Shown here piece by piece: positions 28,431 to 50,166 of a stretch of DNA of 64,000 bases (the stretch's first letter is position 1; every line of letters starts with the position of its first letter). A program made the translations under genes and the position numbers. The DNA is from Roseibacillus persicicus (GTDB taxonomy: Bacteria; Verrucomicrobiota; Verrucomicrobiia; Verrucomicrobiales; Akkermansiaceae): contig NZ_BMXI01000002.1 in NCBI RefSeq assembly GCF_014651675.1, forward strand, positions 89,695 to 153,694, given 5' to 3'. Below the pieces are notes generated by a model. It did not search any database and was not told the origin of the DNA. It saw only the letters and a program-made list of their open reading frames with translations.

Positions 28431-29162
28431 TTGAACAGTATGTCCGCGCGTCAACTTTTCCTCTTCCTCCTTTTTGCTCTTCCTCTGGCTGGTCAGTCGC
28501 AGGGGCCAACAGTGACCACTCCCTCCCGTCAAGGTCAGGTGACCAATGGAGTTCCCAAGTATCCCTGGCACCTCGGAACCACCGCCACCATCTTCTGGAT
28601 CGGGGAGGCGCCCAGTGGCCGGAACCGCACCCCGAATCACAAATCATCCTGGGATACCAACTGGCAGCGCAACTACGGCGGATATGACAACCCTGACCCC
28701 GCCGCACGCAATGGCTACATTCCCAAGGCCTTCACCCCGCGGCTCAATCCGTTCTATATCGCCCTGCCCTACAACGACGTTATCAATCATCGGCAGCATA
28801 AGCCCGAGGCCTCCAAGGTGATTCCCTGGTTCGCCCGCTACAATCCAGCTCCTGGCCAGACCGTCTGTCGCGGTCGCTGGGTCGAGATTGTGCGGAATGG
28901 CAAAACTTGTTTTGCGCAATGGGAAGACTGCGGACCCTTCAATACCACCGACTGGGAGTTTGTCTTCAAAAACAAAGCCCCCAAGAATACCGAGAACAAA
29001 GGAGCTGGAATCGATATTTCCCCAGCGGTCCGCGACTACTTCGGCCTCAAATCCGGCCAAAAGGTCCACTGGCGCTTCGTGGAGTTCGCCGACGTCAAGC
29101 GCGGCCCCTGGTCGCTCTACGGGACCAACAACCCCTTCGTGAATCCACGGGCGCGCCGTTAG
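28431..29162 (+). CDS. hypothetical secreted protein
   Basis: 243 aa with signal peptide LFLFLLFALPLAGQS. Divergent from the cytochrome gene with almost no spacer. Confidence 0.45.
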   Translation: MNSMSARQLFLFLLFALPLAGQSQGPTVTTPSRQGQVTNGVPKYPWHLGTTATIFWIGEAPSGRNRTPNHKSSWDTNWQRNYGGYDNPDPAARNGYIPKAFTPRLNPFYIALPYNDVINHRQHKPEASKVIPWFARYNPAPGQTVCRGRWVEIVRNGKTCFAQWEDCGPFNTTDWEFVFKNKAPKNTENKGAGIDISPAVRDYFGLKSGQKVHWRFVEFADVKRGPWSLYGTNNPFVNPRARR

Positions 29163-29170
29163 TGCCGAGC

Positions 29171-30175
29171 CTATTCGCCGGCCTCATCGAACCAGGCCAA
29201 GGCCTTGGCGAACTCGTCTTGGTTGATGGTGTGCCCTCCGGTAAACTTTTCATCGCGGATCTGACGATAGCCCGCGCTCTTGATGCCTGAAGTGACGGTA
29301 TCGGTCTGGCTCTGGTTCACCAGATTGTCGGAGTCGCCCCAACTCACCCACGCTTTGACCTTCTTGAAGGCGCTCTTTCTCGCTCCACTTTCCTCCAAGG
29401 CAAGGTCGGCAAAGGGCTGGTTGCATCCCCCGAGAAATACTCCCGAAACCGTGAGGTCATTGGCCAGGAGTTGAGCAGTGCGAAAGAAGCTCCCCTTGGA
29501 ACCACTGGAAAATCCTCCGCAGGCGTGGGTCCAGTTCATGAATTCCGGCCATTCGGCGGCGATTTTCTCAATCACTTCAGCGTGAAAGTCAGCATCGCCT
29601 TCCCAAATCGCGATTGTGGTCTCGCGTGGATTGCCGTGCTCGGTGTCGGCGGCAATCACCACGTAACCTGCCGCGAGGGCTTTCGCTGACATCGCGCTGA
29701 TGCGGGCGATGTTGCCCGAGAGACGCTCTTTCTCATTATTGATTCCGCCTACTGGCCAGAAAACCTTTTGGGGTTTCGACGGGTCGAAGTCAGCGGGGAG
29801 AGAGAGCGCGATCTTTATCTTGGTCGGTTGCAGTTTGTTGTCGGAAAGGCTTCTTTGTGTTTTTTCGGAAAGGTCGGTCTCAATATTGTTCAAGGAGCCA
29901 GCCTTCAACTCCTGTCCAAATAAAGAAAGAGCTCCGACCGAGGCCTCTTCCTCGGCGTTTTCGCTCTCTTCCCGCACATATTCCTGGTCGGCTTCCGAGA
30001 GCCGATCGAGAGGGATCTTGAATTCTTTACCCCGCATTAGAAGAACGACGGTGTCGCCCTCTGTCCGGACCAAATCGGCGGTGATTTTCTTGCCGTCATT
30101 TGAAGTCCACTCGCGAGCATTGGCAAAACTCGTAACCCCTAAAGTGGCACAACAGAGAAAGGAAAGTATCTTCAT
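29171..30175 (-). CDS. secreted serine esterase (alpha/beta hydrolase) with N-terminal SHD1-like beta domain
   Basis: Signal peptide, N-terminal SHD1-like domain (DGKKITADLVRTEGDTVVLLMRGKEFKIPL) and a C-terminal alpha/beta fold with GxSxG nucleophile GFSSG. Confidence 0.6.
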   Translation of the reverse strand: MKILSFLCCATLGVTSFANAREWTSNDGKKITADLVRTEGDTVVLLMRGKEFKIPLDRLSEADQEYVREESENAEEEASVGALSLFGQELKAGSLNNIETDLSEKTQRSLSDNKLQPTKIKIALSLPADFDPSKPQKVFWPVGGINNEKERLSGNIARISAMSAKALAAGYVVIAADTEHGNPRETTIAIWEGDADFHAEVIEKIAAEWPEFMNWTHACGGFSSGSKGSFFRTAQLLANDLTVSGVFLGGCNQPFADLALEESGARKSAFKKVKAWVSWGDSDNLVNQSQTDTVTSGIKSAGYRQIRDEKFTGGHTINQDEFAKALAWFDEAGE

Positions 30176-30302
30176 CTTGGCAAAGTGTTAGAAATTGAAC
30201 TCAAACTGGCAAGAAAATCGATGCCTTTGTAAAGAGAGACTCCAATTCTAGCTCGGAATTATAATCGCCTTGATGTGACTTTTTCGCTCTTATGTCCTCG
30301 CC

Positions 30303-30971
30303 GTGAAAGAACTCTGGGAACAAGCCATCCTCTCCTATAACTTGCCATTGACGATCCTGTTGGGGTTGGTGGCGGTCTTTTGGCTTCTAAGCGTTCTCGG
30401 AACCGTTGATATCGATGGCTTTGACTTCGATGTCGATGCGGATGTTGACGCCGAAGGAGCAGGTGATGGTCTTTCGGGACTCTTTGGTTTCGCGATGCGT
30501 TTTGTGAATGCTCACGACGTGCCGGTGACAATTGTCTTGAGCCTGCTCAGTCTCTTCATGTGGGCCGGCAGTGTCCTGGCGAATTACTATTTCAATCCGG
30601 CTCAGAGCGGCCTGATAGCGGCGGGAATCTTTGTGGGTGTTTTCTTTGCTTCCGCTCTGCTGGTTAAGTTAGTGACCGAACCCCTGCGTCCTTTTCTCCG
30701 CCAGTTGAAAAACGAGGAAGACAATCAGGAGCCCATCGTGGGACTGGTGGGGAAGGTGAAGAGCCGGGTCCTCGACAGCAACTTTGGTCAGATTGAAGTC
30801 CCCCGCACCAATGGCGCCCCCGCTTTGCTCAATGCCATTCTCCCCGATGAGGGGGAAAGCCTCGTCCGTGGTGATGAAGTTCTCATTATCGATTTCGATA
30901 AAGACCGCGACAAATATCTCGTTCAATCCAGTGCCCGCCTGGGCGTGGACTCCCCAACTCCAAAAATCTAA
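30303..30971 (+). CDS. NfeD/YqiJ-family membrane protein (OB-fold partner of SPFH proteins)
   Basis: TM helices followed by a C-terminal beta domain (GLVGKVKSRVL...GDEVLIID). Immediately precedes the flotillin gene. Confidence 0.7.
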   Translation: MKELWEQAILSYNLPLTILLGLVAVFWLLSVLGTVDIDGFDFDVDADVDAEGAGDGLSGLFGFAMRFVNAHDVPVTIVLSLLSLFMWAGSVLANYYFNPAQSGLIAAGIFVGVFFASALLVKLVTEPLRPFLRQLKNEEDNQEPIVGLVGKVKSRVLDSNFGQIEVPRTNGAPALLNAILPDEGESLVRGDEVLIIDFDKDRDKYLVQSSARLGVDSPTPKI

Positions 30972-30989
30972 CAAACAACAACTCCTATA

Positions 30990-33011
30990 ATGAATTCCAC
31001 TTGGTTCACCCTTGCCATATTAGAGCCCGTTCTGATGATCACGTTCGTCGGAGTTGGTCTATTCGTCCTCTTTGGTCTTTACCTCCTTCTGACTTGTTAC
31101 CGCAAGGTCGAGAAGGGAACGGCCCTGATTCGAACCGGTAGTGGCGGCACGAAAGTCTACTTCAATGCCGGCCATGTCTTCCCGATTCTGCACCGCGCCG
31201 ATATGATGGATATCTCCCTCAAGCGCATCGAGATCGACCGCACCGGACGTAATGGTCTCATCTGTAAGGACAACATGCGCGCGGACATCAAGGTCGCCTT
31301 CTTCGTGCGGGTCAACAACGCGGGCGAAGACGTTCTTCGCGTGGCGGAAAGTGTGGGCTGTGTCCGCGCCAGTAGCGAGGACGAGATTCGCACGCTCTTC
31401 GATGCCAAGTTCTCCGAGGCGCTCAAGACAGTCGGTAAACGCTTTGACTTCACTTCTCTTTACGAGGACCGCGACACTTTCCGGGATGAGATTTTGAAAG
31501 TCATCGGCACCGACCTCAACGGCTTCGTCCTCGATGATGCTGCCATTGACTTCCTGGAGCAAACTCCGATCGAGATGCTCGATCCGGATAACATTCTCGA
31601 TGCCGAAGGTATCAAGAAAATCACCCACCTCACCGCCGAGCAGAAGAAGCTTTCCAACCACATCGAGCGCGACAAGGAACGCGTGATCAAGCAACAGGAC
31701 GTGGAAGCGCGCGAGGCCATTCTCGAACTCGAGCGCCAATTGGCGGAGACCGAGTCCAAGCAAATGCGCGAGGTCGAAACGGTCAAGGCCCGCGAAGAAG
31801 CGGAGACCCAGAAGGTGCGCGAAGAGCAGCGCCAGCGCAGCGAGCAAGCACGCATTGCCGCCGAGGAAGAGATTCAGATTTCAGAAGAGAACAAGCAGCG
31901 CCAGGTTCTCGTGGCCCTGCGCAACAAGGAGCGCACCGATGGGGTCGAGCTGGAGCGCGTCGAGCGCGAGCGCATGTTGGAACAAATCGAACGCGAACGC
32001 GTCACCGAGCTGAAGCGCATCGAGGCCGACAAGGCGGTCGAGGTCCAGAAGAAGGAAATCCAGGAAGTGATTCGCGAGCGCGTCGCAGTCGAAAAGACTG
32101 TGGTCGAGGAGCAGCAGCGCATGAAGGATATCGAGGAATTCGCGACCGCCGATCGTCAGAAGCAGGTGACCGTGACCTTGGCCGAGGCCCAGGCGCAGGA
32201 AAAAATGATTGGCCGCATCAAGGAAGCGGAAGCGCAGAAAGAGTCCGCGCAACTGGCTGCCGACGAGCATGCCTACGAGGTCATCAAGGAAGCCGAAGCC
32301 GGCCGCGCTGCTGCCGAGATGAACGCCGAACAGCGCATCATCGCTGCCGAAGCCGAGCAGACTGCATCGGAGAAAGAATCGAACGCCAAGAAGATGATGG
32401 CAGAGGCCATCGCCAAAGAAGCCGCCGCCATCGGATTGGGCGAAGCCGAGGTCCTCAAGGCCATGGGCGTTGCCGATGCCGAGGCCATCGAGCTGAAGGC
32501 TGCCGCGATGAAACTCTTCGAAGAAGCAGGTCAGGAGCACGAGGAATTCAAGCTCGAGCTGGAGAAAGAGAAAGCGGTCGAGTTGGCCGAAATCGACGTC
32601 CAGCGTCTCATTGCGGCCGAGCAGGCCAAGGTGGTGGGCGAGGCCCTCAAGAGCGCCAAGATCGACATCGTGGGTGGCGAGACCGAATTCTTCGACCGCA
32701 TCACCAAGGCCATTACTACTGGAAAGGTAGTAGACCGGGTGGTCGACAACAGCCGCGTCATCGACGACGTCAAGGAGACCTTCTTCAATGGCGATCCGGA
32801 TTACTTCAAGAGCCAGCTCTCGGGTTGGATTCAGGATTTCGGAGTCGAAACCGAAGACCTCAAGAACCTCTCCATTTCGGCTCTGTTAGGGAAGCTGGTC
32901 ACCGATGCCAAAGGCGAACAGCGCACCAAGCTCATCGGCATGATGGGCGCCGCCGAACGCTTCGGCCTCTCCGATGCCAAGGCGGGAGAGTTGTTGAAGA
33001 AGTTGGGGTGA
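30990..33011 (+). CDS. flotillin-like SPFH/band-7 protein (YqiK family) with long Ala/Glu-rich coiled coil
   Basis: N-terminal TM, SPFH domain (GTALIRTGSGGTKVYFNAGHVFPILHRADMMDISLKRIEI) and >300 aa of EA/KE-rich heptads. Confidence 0.85.
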   Translation: MNSTWFTLAILEPVLMITFVGVGLFVLFGLYLLLTCYRKVEKGTALIRTGSGGTKVYFNAGHVFPILHRADMMDISLKRIEIDRTGRNGLICKDNMRADIKVAFFVRVNNAGEDVLRVAESVGCVRASSEDEIRTLFDAKFSEALKTVGKRFDFTSLYEDRDTFRDEILKVIGTDLNGFVLDDAAIDFLEQTPIEMLDPDNILDAEGIKKITHLTAEQKKLSNHIERDKERVIKQQDVEAREAILELERQLAETESKQMREVETVKAREEAETQKVREEQRQRSEQARIAAEEEIQISEENKQRQVLVALRNKERTDGVELERVERERMLEQIERERVTELKRIEADKAVEVQKKEIQEVIRERVAVEKTVVEEQQRMKDIEEFATADRQKQVTVTLAEAQAQEKMIGRIKEAEAQKESAQLAADEHAYEVIKEAEAGRAAAEMNAEQRIIAAEAEQTASEKESNAKKMMAEAIAKEAAAIGLGEAEVLKAMGVADAEAIELKAAAMKLFEEAGQEHEEFKLELEKEKAVELAEIDVQRLIAAEQAKVVGEALKSAKIDIVGGETEFFDRITKAITTGKVVDRVVDNSRVIDDVKETFFNGDPDYFKSQLSGWIQDFGVETEDLKNLSISALLGKLVTDAKGEQRTKLIGMMGAAERFGLSDAKAGELLKKLG

Positions 33012-33093
33012 TATTGCTTCCACGGAAATTCTCTTCAGCCCGTCGTCAAGCCATGTCGTCGCAAGCCCAACCAATACCTTCCAAAGTCTCGTT

Positions 33094-33798
33094 GTCCCAG
33101 CGGGACTTGGAGAAGGTAGCCCGGGGTCAGCGAGGCACGAGCGCAGCCCCTGGGTCTTTGGCAAAAGGTCCAGCGCTCTGGAAGAGCGCTAGAAGTAGGT
33201 TCATGTCGGTTCAACCCCAATCTCGCAGCTATGCCTTCTACTCATTCATCTCTCCACTTCCACTTGGTTTTCTCGACAAAGAATCGCGAAAATTGGTTCG
33301 AAGCAGATTTTCGGCCCAGGCTCTTTGCCTATCTGGGAGGAGTGGTGAAAGGGTTGGAAGGTCATGCTCATGCGAACGGTGGAATTGCCAACCATGTCCA
33401 TCTCCTGGTAGGGCTCAAGCCTACCCATTGTCTCTCCGATTTGATGAGAGAACTGAAGTCGGATTCGACGAAGTGGATCAAGGGGCAATTGAACCGCAGT
33501 TCTTTTGCCTGGCAGACCGGCTATGGAGCATTTTCCGTGAGCGCACCCGACTTGGAGAAAGCGAGAAACTATGTTCTCAATCAGGAAGAACATCATCGAA
33601 AACAGAGTTTCCAAGAAGAGTATCTCATCTTTTTAAAGCGAGGATTGGTCGAATACGACAAGCGTTACCTATGGTGATTCCGGCTTGTTCGAGGACTTCT
33701 CGCACCCCTTCAGGGTGCAGGTCACTCGCTACCGGCTCCAGGGGCTGCGCTCGTGCCTCGCTGACCCTTGGCTACCGTCTTTTTCGTCCCGCTGGGAC
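33094..33798 (+). mobile_element. IS200/RAYT-like unit: Y1-transposase gene bracketed by near-perfect 60-bp inverted repeats
   Basis: Left arm 33094-33153 (gtcccagcgggacttggagaaggtagcccggggtcagcgaggcacgagcgcagcccctgg). Right arm 33738-33798 is its reverse complement with a small internal difference. Each arm begins with the palindrome gtcccagcgggac. Confidence 0.8.
33231..33677 (+). CDS. IS200-like / REP-associated tyrosine transposase (Y1 HUH transposase)
   Basis: 148 aa. HFHLVFSTKNRE, the HUH motif HVHLLV and catalytic-Tyr region YGAFSVS. Confidence 0.8.
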   Translation: MPSTHSSLHFHLVFSTKNRENWFEADFRPRLFAYLGGVVKGLEGHAHANGGIANHVHLLVGLKPTHCLSDLMRELKSDSTKWIKGQLNRSSFAWQTGYGAFSVSAPDLEKARNYVLNQEEHHRKQSFQEEYLIFLKRGLVEYDKRYLW

Positions 33799-33868
33799 GC
33801 TTTTGGAAAGACCGGGGAATGAGTCCAATTTAGAACACTGAACGGATCCTCGCGGTCCAAAAAATTTA

Positions 33869-36800
33869 ATGCCAGATACTGAACAGTTAGAAGGTGGAAG
33901 CTACGAGGTCATTCGGGCCCGGCTGGAGAAACATGGCGAGGACCTTCGTCGTCGCCTGGGAATTCTCAACGAAGCCCGCAAGGAGATCTTCGGCGCGGTC
34001 GAGACTTCTCTCGTCGCCACCGAGCGGGTCACCACCGAGCACAATTGCGTGCCTCGCGATCTCATCGCGGTGGGCGGCAATCGTTTCCTCTTTGGCTACA
34101 ACATCCAGTTCGGTCTCAAGCAGACGACCGAAATCGCGGATGTGTTTGCCGCCTATGAGTACGATCCGGAAAGCCACGTCTTCCACGCCCTGGCGGTGGA
34201 GGAGGTGCTCAGCGACCCCGCTTTTTCGGACGACTTCAAATACCTCTACAAGTATTACAAGGAGACCAACTTCGCGAAGTTCATGGTCATTGGACCGAAT
34301 CTTTACATGAAAATGCGGGTCGGCAAAGGGGTGGATGACTTCAAGACCTTCAAGTGGCTCCGGCCCGGGGATGGTCGCCTCGAATACATCGGCAATCGCT
34401 TCGACCACGAGTTCCAATATCCGCCTCAACAAGAGTTCGAATGGAAGCGGGCGCACCGCGACATGCAGCGCGCGGGGATGCATCCCCACATCTCGATCAA
34501 CGACCGCGTTTTCGTCGAGACCGTGGGTGGGGACCTCACCATCAAGGTCGAGGACAATACCGAATCAGGCGAAGGCATTTATGCCGAGCCCGTCAACGAT
34601 CCGGACCAGTCTCTCGACGATGCCGAGGTGCTCTATGCCGAGGTCGGGCCTCTCGTTCTTCTCAAGATTTTGCCCTATCGCGAGGAGCTTCATCGCTACT
34701 TTGTCTTCAACGAAAAGACCCAGGAGGTCAAACGCATTGATGCCATCGGTCACTCGTGCGTGCTTCTTCCCGACGATCAGGGACTCATTTTTTCGAACGG
34801 CTATCTTCTTCTAACAGGTGAGGTGCGCATCTTCGACACCGCGCTCTCGAACATGATGTTCGAGCGCCGCATTCCTTCCGCCAACGGGGAGGATACTCTC
34901 TACGTGTTCTACAATCGGGTCAGTGGGGACTACATTTTGCTCTCCTACAACTTGATCAGCCAGTCCGTGGAGACCCCGGTGATCTGCAATGGCTACTCGC
35001 TTTTTCCAAATGGGGAACTGGTCTACTTCAAGACCGAAGACGCGGCCCAGAAGCACCATACTTTGCAGGTCTGGACCACTCCTTATCTCAGTGAAGAGGC
35101 GCTTGCGGCCCAGCATCAGGATGAAGGCTCTTATCTCTTCAAGATTGGAAACGCCGACCTGGTTCGTGGAATGTCGGAGTGCCGGGAAGTCCTGACTCTG
35201 TTAGGAAAGGACGATAATTACGGAGGTCTCTATCTCGATCTCGTGAAGCGCACGGGCGACCTCGTGGACTCCTACTTTTGGTTGGGTAAAGAAGAGACTG
35301 CCGAATTGTCGGTGCCGGTGCGGGAGATCAATCGTGCGGCTCAGTCTGCCCTGGAGGAGTTCGACAAAGTGCGCGCCCAGCGTCAGTCGGCGGCCAGTCG
35401 CACCAAGGAGGTGCAAGAGGTGGTCGAGACTTTGTTAGCAAAAGTCCGCCACTCTCCGCCCGATGACATCTTTGGATTCGTGCATCATCTCTCCGAGCTG
35501 CGCACCCGCCGGGGCGAGGTCATCGGCCTGCGGGAAGTGCGCTATGCCAAGACGGAAACCATCGATGAGATGGAGGCCAAGTTGGTGGAGGCCGGGGAAG
35601 CCACTTCGCAAAAGACTGTCGAGTTTTTGCTGAAGGACGAAGCTCTCGTGCCCTATCGCAAGGCGGTTACCGAACAAGGAGACACTATCCCCGAACTTTC
35701 AAAAGTCACCGAAGCCGATGCGGTGGGGGCGGCCTTGGACAAAGCGGGAGACGAGCTGGAAATGCTCATCGACATCGTGGGCAATCTCAAAATTGAGGAT
35801 GCCACCCAGACTACTGCCATCATCGACGGAATCTCGAGCATCTACGCCGAGCTCAATGGAGTGCGCGCGGACCTCAAGAACAAGCGCAACGATCTCGCGA
35901 AGGCCGAGGGGACGGCTCAGTTCGGAGCCCAGATGAAGCTCATCTCGCAAGCGGTGGTCAACTATCTGGAAGTCTGCGATACTCCCGAGAAGTGCGACGA
36001 GTCGCTCACCAAGCTGATGATTCAGTTGGAGGAATTGGAAGGACGCTTCTCCGAATTCGATGACTATGTCGAGGAGCTCGCCGGCAAGCGCGAGGAAGTC
36101 TACGAAGCCTTCGAGGGGCGCAAACAGCAGCTCATCGACAGCCGCAACAAGCGGGCTGGTTCTTTGCTTCGCTCGGCGGAGCGCATCCTGGCGGGTATCG
36201 AGCGGCGCTTGGAAAGTTTTGATTCGCTGGACGAGATCAACGGCTATTTCGCTGGCGATCTGATGGTGGAGAAAGTGCGGGGAGTCGTCGATGACCTCAA
36301 GGCTCTCGGAGACGGGGTCAAGGCCGACGACCTGAGCACGCGGTTGAAGACTTTGCGCGAAGATGGTGCGCGCCAGTTGAAGGATCGCAAGGAACTCTAT
36401 GTCGATGGCAAGAACGTCATCCGTTTCGGCAAGCATGCCTTCTCGGTCAATACCCGCGAGCTGGAATTGTCGGTCGTGGCGCGCGACGAGGAGATGTGGT
36501 TCCACCTCGCAGGCACCGATTATTTTGAGAAGATCGTCGACCAAGAATTCAACGAGACGCGAAAGGTCTGGGACCTTGAAGTTCCCAGCGAGACCGCCGA
36601 TCTCTACCGTGGTGAGTGGCTGGCCAGCCTCTTGTTAGAGGGTGAACTAGTAGGTGAGACTGCGGCTGAATTTTTGCCGCAGGTGCAAAGCTTCATGCAG
36701 GCCCGTTACGCGGAAGGTTACGTTAAAGGCGTGCATGATGAGGATACCGCCAAGATTCTGGAGGCCCTGGTGCCGATTGCCAAGAATGCGGGGCTCTTGC

Positions 36801-38917
36801 GCTTCAGTCCCTTGGTGCGGGGGGCGGGAGTGGTGCTCTGGGCGGATCGCGATCAAGAAGGACGCTTGGAGATTTCCCGTCTCATCGCTGGTCACGGGCA
36901 ACGGCTGAAGGCCTTCGGCGAAAAGCAGCGCAGTCGCCACGAGCTGGAAGACGCGCTGGCATTGGAACTGAGCGATCAGTTGAGTCGATCGAGATTCGCG
37001 GGGCGGGTCAGTGCCGCGGCGGTGGCGGAGTATCTCTTTGCGCAATTGCGCGAGGGGGATGGCTTCGTGGTTTCCAATGCCGCCTCCGAGGCCATCAAAC
37101 ACTTGCGCAGTGAGCTCACGGCCAAGCGTGCGAGCGATTCCTTCGAAAACGCCATGGCGGAGCTAAGTCGCGCGGAGGCCCGGCATTCTCTCGCCTTGGA
37201 TTGGTTGCGGGGAATTTTGGAAGGGGAAGAGTCTACTGCCGTGCTCATCGAAGCTGCCGCTCACTTGGCTCGGGGAGGGTACGAGCAACGTGAGGTCAAG
37301 CGAGTGGAATTGTCAGTTGAAGTGGCCGGAATGCGCGGATCACACAGCCGAATCGAAGGCGGCGTGCTGCCTATCCAGTTTAACGATTTCCTTGAACGAG
37401 TGGGACGACTGCGTGACGAGACTTTGCCGCTCTACACGCGTTTCCAAGAGCGCAAGAAAGACCTCATCGCGGCCAAGCGCGCGGAGATGAAGCTCGAGGA
37501 GCTGAAGCCCGAAGTGATGAGTGCTTTTGTGCGCAATCGCTTGTTAGACGAAGTCTTTCTCCCGGTCATTGGCGACAATTTGGCGAAGCAAATCGGCACC
37601 GCAGGCGCGGACTCGCGCACCGATCGGATGGGTCTTCTGCTCCTGATTTCTCCTCCGGGTTACGGAAAAACCACCTTGATGGAATACGTGGCCAATCGTC
37701 TGGGGCTCACTTTCGTCAAAGTGAACGGACCTGCCCTGGGCCATCACGTGGTCTCGCTGGACCCTGCGCAAGCGGGTGACATGTCGGCGGGCGAAGAATT
37801 GGAGAAGCTGAACCTGGCGCTCGAGATGGGCGACAACGTGATGCTCTACCTCGACGATATCCAGCACACCAATCCGGAATTTTTGCAGAAGTTCATCAGT
37901 CTTTGTGATGCCCAGCGGAAGATTGAAGGCGTCTATCAGGGCAAGGCCCGCACTTATGACCTGAAGGGGAAAAAGGTCGCGGTGGTGATGGCGGGAAACC
38001 CTTATACCGAGAGTGGTGGCAAGTTTCAGATTCCCGACATGCTCGCCAACCGGGCCGATACCTACAACTTGGGTGACATCCTCGGCAGTCACGAGTCAGC
38101 CTTCAAGGATAGCTACATCGAGAATTGTCTCACCTCTAACAGCACGCTTTCCAAACTGGCGAGCAGCGGTCTGAAGGATGTGCGCGCGGTCATGAAGATG
38201 GCTGCTGGCGCGGAGCTGGAGGAAGTGGACTTCGAGGCCAACTACACCCCGGGCGAGATTGAAGAATTCGTGCGCGGGATGAAGCTGCTCTATCAGGTGC
38301 GCGACACCATTCTGCGGGTCAACATGCAATACATCGCCAGCGCTGCGCAGGAAGATGCCTATCGCACCGAACCGGCCTTCAAGTTGCAGGGTTCCTACCG
38401 AAACATGAACCGCATCGCGGAAAAGGTGGTGCCGTTGATGACCGACGAAGAGCTCCGCGAGCTTGTGGAATCGCACTACGAGAACGAAGCGCAAAACCTC
38501 ACCACGGGAGCGGAGGCGAACTTGCTGAAGTTCCGCGAAATGGAAGGATTGCTCAACGAGGAGGAAGCGGCGCGTTGGGAGCAGATCAAGACCGAGTTCC
38601 GCAAACAGAAGGTTCTCGGAGGAGCCGGGGAGACCGATCCGGTTGCCAGAGTCGTGGCCCAGCTGCAGGAATTTCGCGAAGGGCTCTCGTCCATCGAGCA
38701 AGGGATTGCGATGGCGGGAAGCAATTACGCCAAGCCCCAGACCCTCACCGATGCCACCGTTGCCCAGCTGCGCGAAATCATCGCTGGCTTGCGCGAGGTG
38801 CCGGTGAAAGTCGACATCAACGTCGTGCCCGTGCAAGACGAAGATGGCTCCATCGAACAAATGGAGAAACGACCTTCACCCATCGACATCCAGCCCAACG
38901 TCGAACAAGGCGACTGA
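33869..38917 (+). CDS. giant (1,682 aa) protein: N-terminal beta-rich domain, ~750-aa coiled-coil region, single dynein/MoxR-type (AAA_5-like) AAA+ module near residues 1250-1450, helical C-terminus
   Basis: Walker A LLLISPPGYGKTTL, Walker B VMLYLDD and sensor VVMAGNPYTESGGKFQIPDMLANRADTY, compared with this window's MoxR [24 protein letters not shown]. One uninterrupted ORF. No TM segments. Confidence 0.8.
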   Translation: MPDTEQLEGGSYEVIRARLEKHGEDLRRRLGILNEARKEIFGAVETSLVATERVTTEHNCVPRDLIAVGGNRFLFGYNIQFGLKQTTEIADVFAAYEYDPESHVFHALAVEEVLSDPAFSDDFKYLYKYYKETNFAKFMVIGPNLYMKMRVGKGVDDFKTFKWLRPGDGRLEYIGNRFDHEFQYPPQQEFEWKRAHRDMQRAGMHPHISINDRVFVETVGGDLTIKVEDNTESGEGIYAEPVNDPDQSLDDAEVLYAEVGPLVLLKILPYREELHRYFVFNEKTQEVKRIDAIGHSCVLLPDDQGLIFSNGYLLLTGEVRIFDTALSNMMFERRIPSANGEDTLYVFYNRVSGDYILLSYNLISQSVETPVICNGYSLFPNGELVYFKTEDAAQKHHTLQVWTTPYLSEEALAAQHQDEGSYLFKIGNADLVRGMSECREVLTLLGKDDNYGGLYLDLVKRTGDLVDSYFWLGKEETAELSVPVREINRAAQSALEEFDKVRAQRQSAASRTKEVQEVVETLLAKVRHSPPDDIFGFVHHLSELRTRRGEVIGLREVRYAKTETIDEMEAKLVEAGEATSQKTVEFLLKDEALVPYRKAVTEQGDTIPELSKVTEADAVGAALDKAGDELEMLIDIVGNLKIEDATQTTAIIDGISSIYAELNGVRADLKNKRNDLAKAEGTAQFGAQMKLISQAVVNYLEVCDTPEKCDESLTKLMIQLEELEGRFSEFDDYVEELAGKREEVYEAFEGRKQQLIDSRNKRAGSLLRSAERILAGIERRLESFDSLDEINGYFAGDLMVEKVRGVVDDLKALGDGVKADDLSTRLKTLREDGARQLKDRKELYVDGKNVIRFGKHAFSVNTRELELSVVARDEEMWFHLAGTDYFEKIVDQEFNETRKVWDLEVPSETADLYRGEWLASLLLEGELVGETAAEFLPQVQSFMQARYAEGYVKGVHDEDTAKILEALVPIAKNAGLLRFSPLVRGAGVVLWADRDQEGRLEISRLIAGHGQRLKAFGEKQRSRHELEDALALELSDQLSRSRFAGRVSAAAVAEYLFAQLREGDGFVVSNAASEAIKHLRSELTAKRASDSFENAMAELSRAEARHSLALDWLRGILEGEESTAVLIEAAAHLARGGYEQREVKRVELSVEVAGMRGSHSRIEGGVLPIQFNDFLERVGRLRDETLPLYTRFQERKKDLIAAKRAEMKLEELKPEVMSAFVRNRLLDEVFLPVIGDNLAKQIGTAGADSRTDRMGLLLLISPPGYGKTTLMEYVANRLGLTFVKVNGPALGHHVVSLDPAQAGDMSAGEELEKLNLALEMGDNVMLYLDDIQHTNPEFLQKFISLCDAQRKIEGVYQGKARTYDLKGKKVAVVMAGNPYTESGGKFQIPDMLANRADTYNLGDILGSHESAFKDSYIENCLTSNSTLSKLASSGLKDVRAVMKMAAGAELEEVDFEANYTPGEIEEFVRGMKLLYQVRDTILRVNMQYIASAAQEDAYRTEPAFKLQGSYRNMNRIAEKVVPLMTDEELRELVESHYENEAQNLTTGAEANLLKFREMEGLLNEEEAARWEQIKTEFRKQKVLGGAGETDPVARVVAQLQEFREGLSSIEQGIAMAGSNYAKPQTLTDATVAQLREIIAGLREVPVKVDINVVPVQDEDGSIEQMEKRPSPIDIQPNVEQGD

Positions 38918-38922
38918 GCAAC

Positions 38923-39183
38923 GGAGCAAGGACATTCCTGTCCTTGAGCAGAGCCTCGGTGGTCAGAGCTTGCGTCAGAACTTCGAAATGGGGTGGACGG
39001 TTCGGCGGGGACGGTTCGGTCCAGGGACAGGAATGTCCCTGCTCCGGAGGACGACTAATGGAGCAAGGACATTCCTGTCCTTGAAGCAGAGCCTCGGTAG
39101 TCAGAGCCGGCATCAGAACTTCGGAGTGGGGTGGACGGTTCGGTGTGGACGGTTCGGTCCAGGGACAGGAATGTCCCTGCTCC
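38923..39183 (+). repeat. REP/BIME-like array, two ~123-bp units (REP-A family) upstream of RAYT2
   Basis: Units 38923-39045 and 39060-39183. Each is bounded by inverted copies of the hairpin ggagcaaggacattcctgtccttg / ccagggacaggaatgtccctgctcc. Confidence 0.85.
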
Positions 39184-39216
39184 ATTTCTTGCTTGTCGTT
39201 TAGGGATATAGTTCGT

Positions 39217-39852
39217 ATGAACATTTTTATGTTCTTTCAGCACGGAGAAAAAGTATTCCGGCACGGACGGGATCTTCCGCATTGGCAACAGGTGGGGACA
39301 ATACAGTTCATCACCTTCCGTCTCGCAGACGCGATGCCTCAAAAGAAGTTAACGAATTGGAAAGAGGAGCGTGATTCCTGGTTGGCGTGGAATCCGAAGC
39401 CTTGGAGCGACCGCCAACAGAATGAGCATAGAAGGTTGTTTCACGAGAAGTTGGAGGAGTGGTTGGATGAAGGAGCAGGTTCTTGTCTTCTTGCCGAGAA
39501 ATCGAATCGAGTAATTCTGGCTGATGTTTTGATGAAAGCTCATGGAGATAAGGCCAGCTTTGAGTCCTTTGTGATTATGCCAAATCATGTTCATCTTTTG
39601 GTACAGCCGTTTGTTGAGTTGGAGAAGTTGATCAAAATTTGGAAAGGTGTTTCGGCGCGGAAAATTGGAAAGGGTTCGATTTGGCAAGGGAATTATCGCG
39701 ATACTATGATTCGCGATGCAGAGCATTTTCGAAATACGGTTCGATATATTCGTAAGAACCCGAAGCATTTAAAATCGGAAGAGTTCACTCTCTGGGAAGG
39801 AAAATCCGCGAAGACGATTCCATCGCTGGAGCAAGGACATTCCTGTCTTTGA
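39217..39852 (+). CDS. REP-associated tyrosine transposase (RAYT, IS200-like Y1 family)
   Basis: HUH motif PNHVHLLVQP. C-terminal WQGNYRDTMIRDAEHFRNTVRYIRKNP resembles E. coli RAYT (WQPRFWEHAIRNTKDYRHHVDYIYINP). The last 8 codons and stop lie inside REP unit 3. Confidence 0.8.
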   Translation: MNIFMFFQHGEKVFRHGRDLPHWQQVGTIQFITFRLADAMPQKKLTNWKEERDSWLAWNPKPWSDRQQNEHRRLFHEKLEEWLDEGAGSCLLAEKSNRVILADVLMKAHGDKASFESFVIMPNHVHLLVQPFVELEKLIKIWKGVSARKIGKGSIWQGNYRDTMIRDAEHFRNTVRYIRKNPKHLKSEEFTLWEGKSAKTIPSLEQGHSCL

Positions 39853-40223
39853 GCAGAGCCTCGGTAGTCAGAGCTGGCGTCAGAACTTCGGAGTGGGGTG
39901 GACGGTTCGGTGGGACGGTTCGGTCCAGGGACAGGAATGTCCCTGCTCCGGGGGACGACTAATGGAGCAAGGACATTCCTGTCCTTGAAGCAGAGCCTCG
40001 GTGGTCAGAGCTGGCGTCAGAACTTCGAAATGGGGTGGATGGTTCGGCGGGGACGGTTCGGTCCAGGGACAGGAATGTCCCTGCTCCGGTGGACGACTAG
40101 CGGAGCAAGGACATTCCTGTCCTTGAGCAGAGCCTCGGTAGTCAGAGCTGGCGTCAGAACTTCGGAGTGGGGTGGACGGTTCGGTGGGACGGTTCGGTCC
40201 AGGGACAGGAATGTCCCTGCTCC
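39828..40223 (+). repeat. REP/BIME-like array, three ~123-bp units (REP-A family) downstream of RAYT2
   Basis: Units 39828-39949, 39964-40087 and 40102-40223, in the same orientation as the upstream units, with 12-15 bp spacers. Confidence 0.85.
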
Positions 40224-40265
40224 GTTTGTCTTTCTTTAGAACTGGGAGCGTGATTTTCTTGCGCG

Positions 40266-40976
40266 GTGGCTTTGCTGCTTCTGATTTTCTTTGCGATTGC
40301 GCTTCTTTACTCGTCCGTGGGGTTCGGGGGAGGCTCGTCTTACACGGCGGTCTTGGCTTGGCGCGGGGAGAGTCCAGAGGTGATTCGCCTGGTGTCTCTG
40401 ACTTGCAATCTGGTGGTGGTTTCCATTGGGGGCTGGGCCAGTCTGCGGGCTAAACAAGTGCGAGCCGGATTGCTTGCTCCCTTGCTAGCGACCTCGATTC
40501 CCGGGGTCTGGCTGGGGGCTCAGTGGAAAGTCTCGGACTCCCTCTTCTTTCAAATTCTCGGACTGGCGCTGGCGGTGGCGGGGGGGGTGTTGTTGGTCAA
40601 AGTGCAGGACCGCGAAGAAAAAGCGCTCTCTCTAACAGCCCTTCTTCCTATCGGATTGGCTTTGGGGATCTTGGCCGGAGTCACGGGGATTGGCGGCGGT
40701 ATTTATCTGGTGCCCGTTCTTCATCTTCTTTCGGCTGGAAAGGCGCGCGAGGTGGCGGCGGTGGGGACGTGGTTCATTCTCGTGAATTCCACCGTGGGCT
40801 TGTTGGTTCTGGCACCGACCGCGGATTGGTCTCAGCCCGGCTGGTTGCCAGTGGTGGTGGCTGGGGGCGGCTTGATTGGCGCGCGCATGCTGCAGGGGGT
40901 CTTCGACGAACAGTTGGTTCGTAGGTGGACGGGGGTGCTGATTTTAGTCGTCGCCGGGCGGGTGCTCTTTTTTTAG
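40266..40976 (+). CDS. TauE/SafE (DUF81) family anion exporter
   Basis: Two repeats with G-rich loops (VGFGGGSSY and GIGGGIYLVP). 236 aa, 7-8 TM. Confidence 0.75.
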   Translation: MALLLLIFFAIALLYSSVGFGGGSSYTAVLAWRGESPEVIRLVSLTCNLVVVSIGGWASLRAKQVRAGLLAPLLATSIPGVWLGAQWKVSDSLFFQILGLALAVAGGVLLVKVQDREEKALSLTALLPIGLALGILAGVTGIGGGIYLVPVLHLLSAGKAREVAAVGTWFILVNSTVGLLVLAPTADWSQPGWLPVVVAGGGLIGARMLQGVFDEQLVRRWTGVLILVVAGRVLFF

Positions 40977-41152
40977 AACGCTGCAAATTTGACGAGTTGA
41001 TTGTAGCGCATTTTTCGGTAGGGCTGTTTTGCCAAAACAGCCGCGAATGTTCGGGGAAGGTCCCCAGGCTCACGCCCTTCGTCCGCGAGAGGATCGCGCG
41101 AGGAATTCAGAACTCTCGCGGTCCTTTTATCAAAAGGACCCTACCGGAGTTC

Positions 41153-41225
41153 GCGTCAGAACTTCGGGGTGGGGATGACGATTCGTGGGGACGGTTCGCG
41201 CCAGGGACAGGAATGTCCCTGCTCC
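41153..41225 (+). repeat. REP-A half-unit (3' hairpin half) in convergent gap between TauE gene and argB
   Basis: gcgtcagaacttcggggtggggatgacgattcgtggggacggttcgcgccagggacaggaatgtccctgctcc, ending 5 bp from the argB stop and followed by TTTTTT. Confidence 0.75.
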
Positions 41226-41230
41226 GTTTT

Positions 41231-42088
41231 TTACAAGACAATTTCGGTGCCGATCCCTTCGGAGGTGAAAATCTCGAGCAAAAGCACGTGGGGCAGGCGT
41301 CCGTCGATGAAGTGAACTTTGCGGGTACCGGCTTGTAAGGCGTCGAGAGCGGAGGTGACCTTGGGAATCATCCCGCCCGAAATGGTGCCGTCTTTGATAA
41401 AGCCGTCCGCTTCGCTTGGGTTCAGCGACTTGATCAGGGTAGTGGCGTCCTTCGGGTCGCGAAGGAGACCGGGCACATCGGAGAGGTAGATCAACTTGGC
41501 TGGTTGGAGCGCCTTGGCCAAGGCAGCCGCCGCGAGGTCGGCATTGATATTGAGCGAGGCGCCGGTGTCGATCTCGCGTCCCAGGGGAGAAATCACCGGC
41601 ACGATGCTGCTGGAGGTGGCGTAGAGAATCTCCTCCGTCACGCAGCTTTCGACCTCGCCCACGTAGCCGATGTCCTTTCCGCCCGGGGTCATGCGGCGCG
41701 CTTGAAAGACGTTGGTGCCCGGGATGGCGGTGGCGCGTCCGCCGTGACCATTGAGGAGCTTCACCAAGTGTGGGCTGAGGGTGTGGGTCAGGGTCTTTTC
41801 GACCAACTCGATGGACTTTTCACAAGTAACGCGGAAGCCTTCCACCCACTCCGGCTCCAGTCCGGATTCCGCCATGGCTGCCGAGATGGCCTTGCCCCCG
41901 CCATGCACCAGCACCGGATTGATGCCTACCGCTTCCAGAAAGAGGATGTCGCGCATGAAGTCGGAGACCAGCGCCGGATCCTCCATCACCGAGCCTCCAA
42001 TCTTGATGAGAAAGGTCTCTCCGCGGAAGCGTTGCAAGTAGGGCAGGGCCTCGATCAAGGTGGCAGCTTTGGATTGCGCGTCAGTCAC
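41231..42088 (-). CDS. argB: acetylglutamate kinase
   Basis: 285 aa. FLIKIGGSV...VLVHGGG and LNINADLAAAALAKAL motifs of the amino-acid kinase family. Confidence 0.9.
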   Translation of the reverse strand: MTDAQSKAATLIEALPYLQRFRGETFLIKIGGSVMEDPALVSDFMRDILFLEAVGINPVLVHGGGKAISAAMAESGLEPEWVEGFRVTCEKSIELVEKTLTHTLSPHLVKLLNGHGGRATAIPGTNVFQARRMTPGGKDIGYVGEVESCVTEEILYATSSSIVPVISPLGREIDTGASLNINADLAAAALAKALQPAKLIYLSDVPGLLRDPKDATTLIKSLNPSEADGFIKDGTISGGMIPKVTSALDALQAGTRKVHFIDGRLPHVLLLEIFTSEGIGTEIVL

Positions 42089-47992: not shown

Positions 47993-48103
47993 GGAAGGCG
48001 GGTTCGCGCGCTTGGGGTATTTTTCGACGCAGAGCCACAGAGTCCCGGAGATTTCGCTGAGTGTTTGAGTAGTGTGCGGAGAGCGTCGGTAGGGAAGTCT
48101 TTC

Positions 48104-48148
48104 GGAGCGCGGGACTTCAGCCCGCCCCACCGAACCGTCCCGAGTCAA
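48104..48148 (+). repeat. REP-B family repeat, copy 1 (between cls and vsr)
   Basis: ggagcgcgggacttcagcccgccccaccgaaccgtcccgagtcaa, with hairpin core gcggg-acttcag-cccgc. Confidence 0.75.
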
Positions 48149-48274
48149 GACCGCAGAGCGGCCCGCGCCGCCCGATGGGGATAAAGATTCTCACCTCCCC
48201 GTCACTCAGGCAGCGCCAGTGACCCCCAGCGGCCAGTATTTGGTCCTTTCGTTTTTCGTGCTACATTCGCCGCC

Positions 48275-48787
48275 ATGGCCGACCTCTGGGATGCGGAAAA
48301 GCGCAGCTGGGTGATGTCGCGCATTCGGTCGCGCGACACCAAGCCCGAGATTGTGGTGCGCTCGATTCTCCATCGCCTCGGTTACCGCTTCACCATCAAC
48401 GGGCCACTCAACAAGAGCCTCCCCGGAAAGCCCGATATCGTTCTCCCCAAGTGGAAAACCGTGGTCCTCGTGCATGGCTGCTTCTGGCATGCGCATGAGG
48501 GCTGCAAAGACTTCCGCATTCCCAAGACCCGGAGTGAGTGGTGGGCGGAGAAGCTGGCAAAGAACAAAGCCCGAGATGCCAAGGTGAAGCGCCAGCTGCG
48601 CGAAGCCGGTTGGCAGGTCATCACCGTCTGGGCATGCGAGATGAAGACCGTGGAAAAGCTCGCAGCCCTCGTCATCCGCCTCGGCACTGAGATGGCATCT
48701 ACGGAAAAGAAGAGTAGCTATCGCCTCCCCGCCGAAACAGCCACCCGCGTTGCCGAAGAGGTCAAGGGCTACCGAGTGAGCAAATGA
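48275..48787 (+). CDS. vsr: very-short-patch-repair endonuclease Vsr (no adjacent cytosine methyltransferase)
   Basis: 170 aa. PDIVLPKWKTVVLVHGCFWHAHEGC...AGWQVITVWACE matches Vsr (FTHGCFWHHH...GWRVLIVWEC in E. coli). Confidence 0.85.
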   Translation: MADLWDAEKRSWVMSRIRSRDTKPEIVVRSILHRLGYRFTINGPLNKSLPGKPDIVLPKWKTVVLVHGCFWHAHEGCKDFRIPKTRSEWWAEKLAKNKARDAKVKRQLREAGWQVITVWACEMKTVEKLAALVIRLGTEMASTEKKSSYRLPAETATRVAEEVKGYRVSK

Positions 48788-48818
48788 AAACCCTAACTTC
48801 CCAAGCCACCCCCCAACC

Positions 48819-48862
48819 GGAGCGCGGGACTTCAGCCCGCCCCATCGTTCCGTCCCCAGTCA
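48819..48862 (+). repeat. REP-B family repeat, copy 2 (convergent gap vsr / nuclease gene)
   Basis: ggagcgcgggacttcagcccgccccatcgttccgtccccagtcagg. Confidence 0.75.
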
Positions 48863-48874
48863 GGTCGAACAGCT

Positions 48875-49927
48875 CTAGATCCTTCGGAAGGAAATTTCGC
48901 CTTTGCCAAACTTCGCAATCAACTGGCGCATCGTATCTTCGGTGTTTGTGCCCCATTGGTCGCTGAAAGCGTAAGTAACCCCGTTGTGAAAAATAAGGTC
49001 CTCCGGCTTGGTGAACCACCGTCTTGCGTCGAAGGTTTTTCCATCGGGTTGTTGGCTCGCTTCGCTGGCGGCCCGGAGGAAATCCTTTTCGTTCGAGAAC
49101 TCACCCGGCACGGTATAGAACCGGGGTCGACTCATCAGGTCTTGCAGTTCGTCCGGGCTGGACCCTTCTTCCAAGATACAAGAGACAACCTTCAAGATCG
49201 CCCTTCGTTTCACCAAGTTCGAAAACGTTTTCTCACGGTGAGTGACTTCATATTTAAATCTCTCGCGAGAGCTACCCCCGCCGATTTTTTTCTCTAACTT
49301 TTTCTCCCTGATGCGGACCATGTAATCCGCCGCTTCGGGTAAGGGGATGATTTGTTGGATATCAACGAGAACCTCTGCTTCGTTGCGATAGGCTTGCATG
49401 CGCACACAGCTGATATCGAGGCCCTGCTCGTTTAACCAGAGAACGGTAGTCGTGATCTCTTGGTTGAAGTCGGCGGAAACCAGCACGATGCGGGTCTGCT
49501 GTCCAATTTCACCATCAGTTTCGTCAGACCAATCGAGGTGTTGGAGGAGGGTTTTCTCGGCGTCTCCTTCCTTTTGATTCTTATCAAGGTAGTCCTGAAA
49601 GATCTCAACAACACGATCAAAGGTTAGAGCCGAAACCATTGCTGCGTAGCGAACGGCCTGTAGGTCCATATGTCCGCCATCCGTGGTTCTCTTGAGCTCG
49701 ATTACGACCAGATTGCCGGTCTTATCGATACCCAACAGATCGATTCGGCGCCGACTATCTTCCCATTCGGAAAATTCCTCCGCGATAATTAGGGTGTCGG
49801 GCGAAACTGCTTGGATCTGTTCCTTGATGACCTGCTGCAAGTTCTCCCGCTCAAGAATACCGAGCTTCGAAAACGTGGCTTGCGGGAGCGGGGAGAGAGC
49901 GGTTTTAGAAAGTTTATAAATCGGCAT
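48875..49927 (-). CDS. PD-(D/E)xK-superfamily nuclease-like protein (N-terminal nuclease core, C-terminal ~200-aa domain of unknown function)
   Basis: RIDLLGIDKTGNLVVIELKR (D...ExK) followed by QAVRYAAM (QxxxY, RecB/Cas4-like motif). The GC is visibly lower than its surroundings. Confidence 0.6.
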   Translation of the reverse strand: MPIYKLSKTALSPLPQATFSKLGILERENLQQVIKEQIQAVSPDTLIIAEEFSEWEDSRRRIDLLGIDKTGNLVVIELKRTTDGGHMDLQAVRYAAMVSALTFDRVVEIFQDYLDKNQKEGDAEKTLLQHLDWSDETDGEIGQQTRIVLVSADFNQEITTTVLWLNEQGLDISCVRMQAYRNEAEVLVDIQQIIPLPEAADYMVRIREKKLEKKIGGGSSRERFKYEVTHREKTFSNLVKRRAILKVVSCILEEGSSPDELQDLMSRPRFYTVPGEFSNEKDFLRAASEASQQPDGKTFDARRWFTKPEDLIFHNGVTYAFSDQWGTNTEDTMRQLIAKFGKGEISFRRI

Positions 49928-50028
49928 GGATAGATGGGAGAATTAGTATCTGGCCAAAGTCCCTCGGGAAAGGGCGAACTCTGAGAACTGAGTTGCCGTG
50001 GAATCGTGGACCAAGGTTCTATAGGGTC

Positions 50029-50166
50029 GACCTCTGGGATGCGGAAAAGCGCAGTTGGGTGATGTCGCGTATTTTGTTCTTCGGCACCATGCCCGGGATT
50101 GCGTCCCACTTCGTGCGGCTCTCCAACTCTGCCAAGCGGGTTGGCTTTCCCCAATATTCATCATGA
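50029..50166 (+). pseudogene. truncated, diverged 5' fragment of a second vsr copy
   Basis: The first ~90 nt are near-identical to vsr codons 2-16 (DLWDAEKRSWVMSRI), then diverge (LFFGTMPGIASHF vs RSRDTKPEIVVRS). Stop after 45 codons. Confidence 0.6.

Follow-up and report, generated by a model that had tools for sequence, protein, structure and literature searches.

The closest described relatives of the locus reported here are the yqiJ-yqiK gene pair of Escherichia coli, the yuaF-floT pair of Bacillus subtilis and a larger operon type described by Ravi et al. (2024, mSystems, PMC11237479). In the latter, a YqiJ/YuaF gene and a Band-7/flotillin gene are combined with a gene for a "beta-propeller + coiled-coil + AAA+" protein in association with PspA, and "abbreviated operons" lacking PspA are widely distributed (PMC11237479). 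In this study, a 64-kb stretch of the genome of Roseibacillus persicicus (Verrucomicrobiota), hereafter called the window, was analyzed; coordinates are those of the window unless another locus is named. Its genes for an NfeD-like protein (nfeD), a flotillin (flot) and a giant ATPase form one conserved three-gene module, and the spacer between flot and the ATPase gene holds an element that is REPtron-like, i.e. a single-copy Y1/HUH transposase gene lying between two inverted repetitive extragenic palindromic (REP) units. The linkage of the three genes has already been described computationally, and the window is a Verrucomicrobial, REPtron-bearing member of that operon type. The locus consists of:

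30303-30971, + strand: predicted YqiJ/YuaF-type NfeD-like membrane protein gene (nfeD), an open reading frame (ORF) of 222 amino acids (aa), first gene of the module
30990-33011, + strand: predicted YqiK-type flotillin gene (flot), ORF of 673 aa, starting 18 nt past nfeD
33094-33154, + strand: left REP unit with hairpin 1, a linear motif and hairpin 2 (inverted-repeat search and single-stranded DNA fold)
33172-33190, + strand: hairpin 3, AGCGCTCTGGAAGAGCGCT, with an 8-bp stem and a 3-nt loop, about 40 nt before the Y1 start codon
33231-33677, + strand: Y1 (HUH) transposase gene, ORF of 148 aa, Pfam Y1_Tnp
33738-33798, - strand: right REP unit, mirroring the left one as its reverse complement; an inverted REP (iREP) when read on the + strand (inverted repeats and single-stranded DNA fold)
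33869-38917, + strand: giant ATPase gene, ORF of 1682 aa with DUF3686, DUF7902 and AAA domains

The initial annotation, which had viewed the region as one locus interrupted by a REP-flanked insertion, placed all four ORFs at the same positions. The distance of 857 bp that it reported between the flot stop and the start of the giant gene, a spacer holding the Y1 gene, was also recovered.

Composition and conservation of the module

A set of 80 giant-gene loci was gathered from species-representative genomes by means of an alignment of 17 homologues, and the neighbours were identified by tblastn with the window proteins. Among the 68 loci with at least 3 kb of upstream DNA, there are 65 in which the giant gene is directly preceded by a flotillin homologue on the same strand (62/65 if the extra loci L001-L003 are left out). 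The loci come from seven phyla: Verrucomicrobiota, Planctomycetota, Bacteroidota, Desulfobacterota, Kiritimatiellota, Omnitrophota and Clostridia. The gap between flot and the giant gene does not exceed 250 bp and contains no inserted gene in 31 loci, and a YqiJ-like gene precedes flot in 51. Conservation across the loci is limited to nfeD, flot and the giant gene, and therefore these three are regarded as one locus, with the Y1 gene inserted in the flot-giant spacer. The adjacency suggested by the initial annotation is thus found in related genomes as well, including many that lack the insert.

In 18-20 Bacteroidota loci, genes encoding PspA_IM30 (E 1e-40) and CesT_Tir_1 (E 3e-53) proteins lie upstream of the module, accompanied by a divergent HTH-Peptidase_S24 gene. 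These loci reproduce the published Dokdonia operon (PMC11237479), and the linkage is therefore not new, as the Bacteroidota arrangement is the operon of Ravi et al. (2024). The three core genes, their order and their orientation are common to that operon and the window, and because gene order and protein architecture agree, we infer that the giant protein is equivalent to the ATPase of Ravi et al. The full form of the published operon has the CesT/Tir-PspA dyad upstream, whereas no CesT or PspA homologue was found near the module in the window, where the upstream genes encode a 243-aa protein (with no Pfam match) and a divergent 334-aa ORF. As the dyad is absent there, the window module corresponds to the "abbreviated" form. 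Unlike the published operon as described, it has the REPtron-like insert in the flot-ATPase spacer. Ravi et al. (2024) did not describe the variability of this spacer or the hairpins and cargo in it, nor did they name DUF3686 and DUF7902.

The module lies in a conserved chromosomal context within Roseibacillus. At its 5' edge, the 334-aa ORF (29171-30175, - strand; weak RimP-C match only) is placed between nfeD and the gene for the 243-aa protein (28431-29162), which is conserved in Roseibacillus. Its position is empty in R. ishigakijimensis and is taken by a DUF1194 gene in the metagenomic relative L002, which points to a second variable slot.

The two smaller proteins of the module were identified through family alignments built from related loci, which were compared with E. 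coli K-12 YqiK and YqiJ using hhalign. Family profiles were used because direct searches with the window proteins gave nothing: for the 673-aa protein alone there was no Pfam, NCBIfam or PDB sequence match, and for the 222-aa protein alone there was no significant one, its Pfam YqiJ_N match being sub-threshold (E 0.0096, 16.5 bits). The flotillin-family profile (A4) matched YqiK with a probability of 100% (E 1.5e-41, 393 columns) and the NfeD-like family profile (A5) matched YqiJ with a probability of 96.2% (E 2.4e-9). Pfam Band_7 was matched directly by 3 of 25 flotillin-family members (best E 2.5e-12), and a weak match to QmcA was seen in PDB. The layouts are those of an N-terminal transmembrane segment, an SPFH/Band-7 domain and a long E/A/K-rich helical region in the flotillin, and of three hydrophobic segments followed by a C-terminal beta-rich soluble domain in the NfeD-like protein (the latter by direct reading of the sequence). 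By homology, then, the 673-aa protein is a predicted YqiK-type flotillin and the 222-aa protein is predicted to be YqiJ-like, in agreement with the resemblance to yqiJ-yqiK proposed in the initial annotation.

The E. coli yqiJ-yqiK and B. subtilis yuaF-floT pairs are accordingly homologous to the window pair (hhalign 96% and 100% against E. coli). The gap between the two genes is 18 nt in the window vs 26 nt in E. coli, and the flotillin of the window is 120 residues longer than YqiK. In E. coli K-12 the pair is followed by sibD/ibsD and hldE, and not by a giant ATPase gene.

The giant protein, a soluble ATPase of about 1,700 residues, comprises three Pfam domains, DUF3686 (residues 25-470, E 7e-187), DUF7902 (591-674) and an AAA core (1257-1334). 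It begins with a helix, which is followed by the all-beta (propeller-like) DUF3686 region and a long helical part containing DUF7902, and it ends in an AAA+ module with a helical tail. The Walker A motif GYGKTT (1264-1269), N1377 and R1395 are invariant in the 17 Verrucomicrobial homologues, and so is the DD pair at the Walker B position (1329-1330). When defined by its N-terminal 700 residues, the family contains about 300 clusters at 50% identity (E<=1e-30). Most members have 1,600-1,900 residues with the DUF3686-region domain at the N-terminus, and the architecture is constant. The gene is under strong purifying selection, as indicated by a ratio of nonsynonymous to synonymous substitution rates (dN/dS) of 0.06; the ratio for flot is 0.08 (vs R. 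ishigakijimensis), and for the three module genes together the values span 0.06-0.22 despite the insert.

Two parts of the protein were modelled with AlphaFold2 (AF2). In the model of residues 1-560, a helix (10-41) precedes about 25 beta-strands (60-400), which are followed by further helices (409-559), and every top Foldseek match to it is a beta-propeller. In the model of residues 1195-1682, a beta-hairpin is inserted ahead of the sensor-1 strand of an AAA+ core, and a helical tail is present; its closest structures are MCM, NorQ (MoxR family) and RuvB. Both models were built from shallow 8-sequence alignments and are of low confidence, and for this reason the fold matches are taken as weak support. 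With this reservation, the models tentatively fit the published "beta-propeller + coiled-coil + AAA+" architecture. The modelled core may resemble MCM, MoxR and RuvB and not the FtsH/Vps4 clade (low confidence), which hints at a motor outside the classical FtsH/Vps4 clade.

The giant protein is 100% identical to an R. persicicus protein named "DNA repair ATPase" by NCBI. The family appears in databases as "DNA repair ATPase", "MoxR-like ATPase" or "phage shock protein A"; with the exception of the generic AAA core, no above-threshold domain match backs any of these names. Literature searches yielded no experimental work on the ATPase, and nothing was found under DUF3686 or PF12458.

The REPtron-like element and the spacer that it occupies

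Elements of the IS200/IS605 family have no terminal inverted repeats; they carry distinct subterminal hairpins at the left end and the right end, on the same strand. REPtrons, i.e. tnpA_REP genes flanked by REP/iREP sequences, were reportedly described by Nunvar in 2010 and Ton-Hoang in 2012. A REP is defined by a GTAG tetranucleotide directly 5' of a palindrome and is recognised by TnpA_REP (Corneloup 2021, PMC8266576), and a single copy with flanking REPs is the signature of REP-associated tyrosine transposases (RAYTs) and REPtrons (Bertels 2017, PMC5581495).

The window element spans 33094-33798 (705 bp), and its removal leaves 152 bp between flot and the giant gene; both values agree with the initial annotation. 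The inverted repeats round the Y1 gene which it had noticed are real and form two pairs: a perfect 13-nt arm (33094-33106 / 33786-33798) and a 43-nt arm (33111-33153 / 33738-33780) that is 93% complementary. What had been called a small internal difference between the arms is the separator of the two repeats, which measures 4 nt in the left arm and 5 nt in the right arm. The left unit is composed of:

33094-33106, + strand: hairpin 1, GTCCCAGCGGGAC (inverted repeats and single-stranded DNA fold)
33111-33121, + strand: linear motif, AGAAGGTAGCC, containing GTAG at 33116-33119
about 33120-33154, + strand: hairpin 2, CCCGGGG...CCCCTGGG, the palindrome after GTAG

All three parts recur in reverse complement in the right arm. 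Exactly 2 copies of the 29-nt core of the arm occur in the window vs 0 expected (100 shuffles); a REP 16-mer of the element is, for example, GAAGGTAGCCCGGGGT. An alignment of the regions upstream of Y1 genes from five lineages gave the order hairpin 1 (GYCCC-NNN-GGGRC), AGAAGGTAGCC, hairpin 2 (CNGGGGT...ACCCCNGG), hairpin 3 and ATG. Hairpin 3 reads GCGCTCTGGAAGAGCGC in R. persicicus and R. ishigakijimensis, and GAGCCCCGGAGGGGYG at the same place in the relatives L086, L087 and L088, and it is conserved across the Y1 element family, with compensatory differences. The compensatory changes in the REP hairpins were read off alignments by eye.

The Y1 protein (Pfam Y1_Tnp, E 4.5e-21) is encoded in exactly this form at one place only in the R. 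persicicus assemblies, and no R. persicicus paralogue appears among its best 120 homologues. In R. ishigakijimensis (L001), a copy with 76% aa identity occupies this slot in the same orientation, and the repeats flanking it, including the right arm, are homologous to those of the window. The dN of the Y1 pair (0.17) is within the range of the neighbouring genes; its dS, estimated by the NG86 method, is saturated, and hence no dN/dS is given. The metagenomic relatives L086 (76% aa identity) and L087 (72%) also have the Y1 gene in this slot, with extra REP units next to it, and the syntenic copies overall share 72-79% aa identity. A Y1 relative at 66% identity occupies a different but fixed locus in 12 contigs. 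The element has thus been in the slot since before the divergence of R. persicicus and R. ishigakijimensis, and the ATPase gene has not been inactivated. The view of one locus is upheld, as only the three genes are conserved. To call the locus "interrupted" is too strong, because the insert is old, the giant gene is under purifying selection and the same slot holds other cargo elsewhere.

In being single-copy and syntenic across species, the Y1/HUH gene of the window behaves like that of a REPtron, and the two units are likewise inverted, each with GTAG and a palindrome, with further units in relatives and metagenomes. Differences from a REPtron are that the protein scores as an IS200/IS605 TnpA and not as a RAYT (NCBIfam), that the units have an extra 5' hairpin (hairpin 1) and that a third hairpin precedes the Y1 gene. 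With IS200/IS605 elements the window element shares the TnpA-type Y1 protein, but it lacks multiple near-identical copies or a patchy, non-syntenic spread, and its ends are reverse complements of each other over about 60 nt. We therefore describe it as REPtron-like with an IS200-type protein, since its genomic behaviour is that of a domesticated REP-associated transposase and its protein model is that of IS200.

Metagenomes were scanned for the units as well. A 35-nt degenerate pattern of the arm gave 0 matches, and the shorter pattern AGAAGGTAGCCNGGGGT was found in at least 120 stretches, with the closing half of hairpin 2 present in 64 of 85 motif instances. The composite motif, i.e. a variable hairpin, AGAAGGTAGCC and the CNGGGGT...ACCCCNGG hairpin, is widespread in soil and freshwater metagenomes, and its first hairpin varies with compensation (e.g. 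GCATCCCGGAGGGATGC, GCCGCGATAGCGGC and CACGCCGAAGGCGTG). No Y1 gene was present in the fetched DNA of 77 of the 80 stretches retrieved (L092-L171), which is only suggestive, because many stretches are short. A scan of 32900-41400 against Rfam revealed nothing real, and the composite motif has no Rfam family.

The spacer that received the element is variable far beyond Roseibacillus. The nfeD-flot spacer has a median of 19 nt and exceeds 250 nt in 1 of 54 cases; the corresponding values for the flot-giant spacer are 266 nt and 36 of 71. Genes identified in the latter include: (i) a PDDEXK_3 gene (L002, L005, L006, L009, L015 and L214), (ii) a Y1 gene (the window, L004, L086, L087 and L038, and on the opposite strand in L071), (iii) a DUF559 gene (L049 and L050), (iv) a gene for a SHOCT protein (L020) and (v) in Bacteroidota, genes for assorted small membrane proteins and lipoproteins. 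Some of this cargo is bracketed by inverted repeats, of 42 nt in L002 (round PDDEXK_3, 83% complementary), 28 nt in L071 and 41 nt in L038. The PDDEXK_3 gene of L002 (7304-7835 of that locus) also looks like a mobile cassette; there is an N-run just inside the giant gene of L002. In the genus-level clade to which the window belongs, the slot has one of three occupants: a Y1 gene, a complete PDDEXK_3 gene or the relic of one. The relics are found at 3818-4000 of L215 (43 aa with an in-frame stop, E 1.5e-8 with a tiny subject set; giant protein 74% identical) and at 2954-3176 of L212 (26 aa, E 2.7e-4 with a tiny subject set; giant protein 86% identical).

Candidates for sites free of any insert were also considered. 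The slots of L212 and L215 are geneless but contain these pseudogene relics, and the two loci are only partly usable as clean empty sites. L003, which has the same giant protein as L002, was rejected because its 107-bp gap (7895-8000) is a scaffold N-run.

Short flot-giant spacers usually consist of one strong stem-loop. In 27 of 70 loci (vs 6.9% of shuffles), the first 120 nt past the flot stop contain a GC-rich hairpin of at least 8 bp, and in 8 of 70 (vs 1.3%) a terminator-like hairpin with a T-run is present. Neither frequency is lower than that after the giant-gene stop (16/77 and 7/77, respectively). In L071, the terminator-like hairpin is formed by the REP that accompanies a different Y1 gene. 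A promoter and terminator scan of 30000-39300 gave nothing above shuffles, and the sigma-70-like consensus used may not suit Verrucomicrobia.

Proposed role of the module and alternative explanations

Partnerships of SPFH proteins with AAA+ proteins include HflK/C-FtsH, and a comparable pairing is the ESCRT-III/PspA-type Vps4 system. The window resembles HflK/C-FtsH and ESCRT-III-Vps4 in that a membrane-bound oligomeric scaffold and an AAA+ motor would be encoded side by side; unlike in the FtsH and Vps4 systems, the ATPase has no protease or MIT domain. Vps4-like AAA+ proteins with Snf7/PspA homologues are discussed in PMC11237479. The mechanism proposed below is based on the analogy with such SPFH-AAA+ and ESCRT-III-AAA+ pairs.

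We consider it probable, taking all parts together, that the locus is a conserved three-gene module with an old resident REPtron-like insert, a scaffold-remodelling ATPase and a stem-loop spacer. The flotillin and its YqiJ partner would build an oligomeric SPFH scaffold at the cytoplasmic face of the inner membrane, to which the ATPase, probably a ring-forming motor, may dock via its propeller and coiled-coil parts. It would spend ATP on assembling, remodelling or stripping the scaffold or its clients in envelope stress, and PspA may be among its targets in lineages with PspA in the operon. The stem-loop of the spacer could set a high-flotillin/low-ATPase expression ratio, and REP hairpins and other repeat-bracketed small genes would repeatedly land there; in R. 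persicicus, the REP units probably stand in for the stem-loop.

A more specific version is offered tentatively, as we hold it to be possible but doubtful: the DUF3686/DUF7902 AAA+ protein would be a dedicated assembly/disassembly motor of flotillin (and PspA) scaffolds, and the stem-loop would both set the expression ratio and, because the hairpin is exposed, serve as a recurrent landing pad for HUH/REP elements and small repeat-bracketed genes. If true, the system would be a bacterial counterpart of HflK/C-FtsH and ESCRT-III-Vps4 with an AAA+ core of another kind, marked by the pre-sensor-1 hairpin, and in Roseibacillus REP/HUH elements would have taken over the role of the stem-loop.

Several observations count against the explanation that we favour, namely the module with a scaffold-remodelling ATPase. 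A physical flotillin-ATPase partnership is putative, and in three loci (L047, L048 and L052, from metagenome-assembled genomes of Desulfobacteraceae, Cytophagaceae and Bacteroidia) the 10 kb around the giant ATPase gene contain no flotillin homologue. Both the propeller fold and the assignment of an AAA+ clade are tentative, as the models have pLDDT values of 56 (N-terminal) and 63 (C-terminal), with TM-scores of about 0.2 for the top propeller matches and 0.2-0.45 overall. Strong over-representation of the flanking REP 16-mers throughout the host genome is a further hallmark of REPtrons; the copy count in R. persicicus covers the 64-kb window (2 copies), and indirect support comes from the additional units in L086 and L087 and from the metagenomic instances. 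An "operon" in the sense of a single transcript across 33012-33868 is putative, and given the frequent hairpins after flot the ATPase gene could be a separate transcription unit. This last point leads to the main rival, in which the neighbours are functionally linked without being one operon: the nfeD-flot transcript would end at the stem-loop or REP, and the ATPase gene would have its own promoter in the spacer. We give this possibility considerable weight while leaning away from it, and it is compatible with functional linkage. It would explain why hairpins (27/70) and terminator-like hairpins (8/70) are at least as frequent after flot as after the giant gene, and why the spacer tolerates inserts of up to 2.5 kb and, in L071, a cargo gene on the opposite strand. 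However, the module genes share one orientation near universally, and the cargo genes that could be identified nearly always follow it. Many spacers leave too little room for a promoter, with lengths of 1-64 nt in the lowest decile and of 33-48 nt in L017 and L022, and the consensus scan detected no promoter-like site in 33012-33868.

The class of the Y1 protein is a further point against our reading. It passes the NCBIfam model for IS200/IS605 TnpA (transpos_IS200; 58.8 bits, cut-off 55) and fails the RAYT model (REP_Tyr_transpos; 23.2 bits, cut-off 80), its relatives show the same pattern, and NCBI names it an IS200/IS605 family transposase. These scores would suit an ordinary, active IS200/IS605 element which hopped in recently and inactivated the ATPase gene by polarity, a scenario that is very unlikely: the exact protein occurs at one place and has no close paralogue in the genome, syntenic copies exist in R. 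ishigakijimensis (76% aa identity, dN 0.17), L086 and L087, the ends are 60-bp inverted units of GTAG and palindrome, and the giant gene is intact with a dN/dS of 0.06. The giant protein has also been regarded as a DNA-repair ATPase, in which case the adjacency to flotillin would be meaningless. The Pfam text for DUF3686 ("ATPase involved in DNA repair"), the NCBI name "DNA repair ATPase" and a weak similarity of the AAA core to RuvB speak for it, but that similarity (E about 1e-4 to 1e-5) does not extend beyond the generic P-loop/AAA core, Pfam revealed no domain of a nuclease, a helicase or a DNA-binding protein in the giant protein, and neither the retention of flotillin and YqiJ genes next to it in 65 of 68 loci from seven phyla nor the coupling to PspA/CesT in Bacteroidota fits a repair enzyme; we attach hardly any credence to it. 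Equally improbable in our opinion is an anti-phage defence system built round the large ATPase, as might be suspected from a large NTPase gene with mobile-element-like genes on both sides and from PADLOC matches to LmuB (5e-5, coiled-coil region) and IetA (2.5e-4, P-loop). Those matches are weak and confined to the coiled-coil or P-loop, no effector domain is present, the chromosomal context in Roseibacillus is conserved, purifying selection is strong, and the wide conservation with a constant architecture is unlike typical patchy defence islands.

The function of bacterial flotillins is unsettled, and an ATPase conserved next to them in seven phyla is a concrete, testable partner. The residual interest of the locus lies in this ATPase, which is experimentally uncharacterised and for which "DNA repair ATPase" is a database mislabel; nothing that was found supports the name. 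What the window adds is a Verrucomicrobial example, quantitative support for the linkage, and the observation that the flot-ATPase junction is a hairpin-bearing, often re-occupied slot (REPtron, PDDEXK_3, DUF559 and relics), which is relevant to the expression ratio of flot and the ATPase gene and to the sites in which REP-type elements settle.

Other repeats in the window

A second, unrelated REP family begins at the stop codon of the giant gene (38917-41228). It comprises at least 6 REPIN-like doublets of about 123 nt (GGAGCAAGGACATTCCTGTCCTTG ... CAGGGACAGGAATGTCCCTGCTCC), with a further copy at 41104-41226, and the doublets surround a second Y1 gene (39217-39852, 211 aa). The product of this gene is RAYT-like, scoring 52.5 bits with NCBIfam REP_Tyr_transpos, which is under the cut-off of 80. 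The giant gene is therefore flanked on both sides by different REP/Y1 elements. Farther downstream, the region 48103-50409 contains a 45-nt repeat family with three copies (48103, 48818 and 50365), as well as a 77-nt duplicate (48277-48353 and 50025-50101) that is 84% identical.

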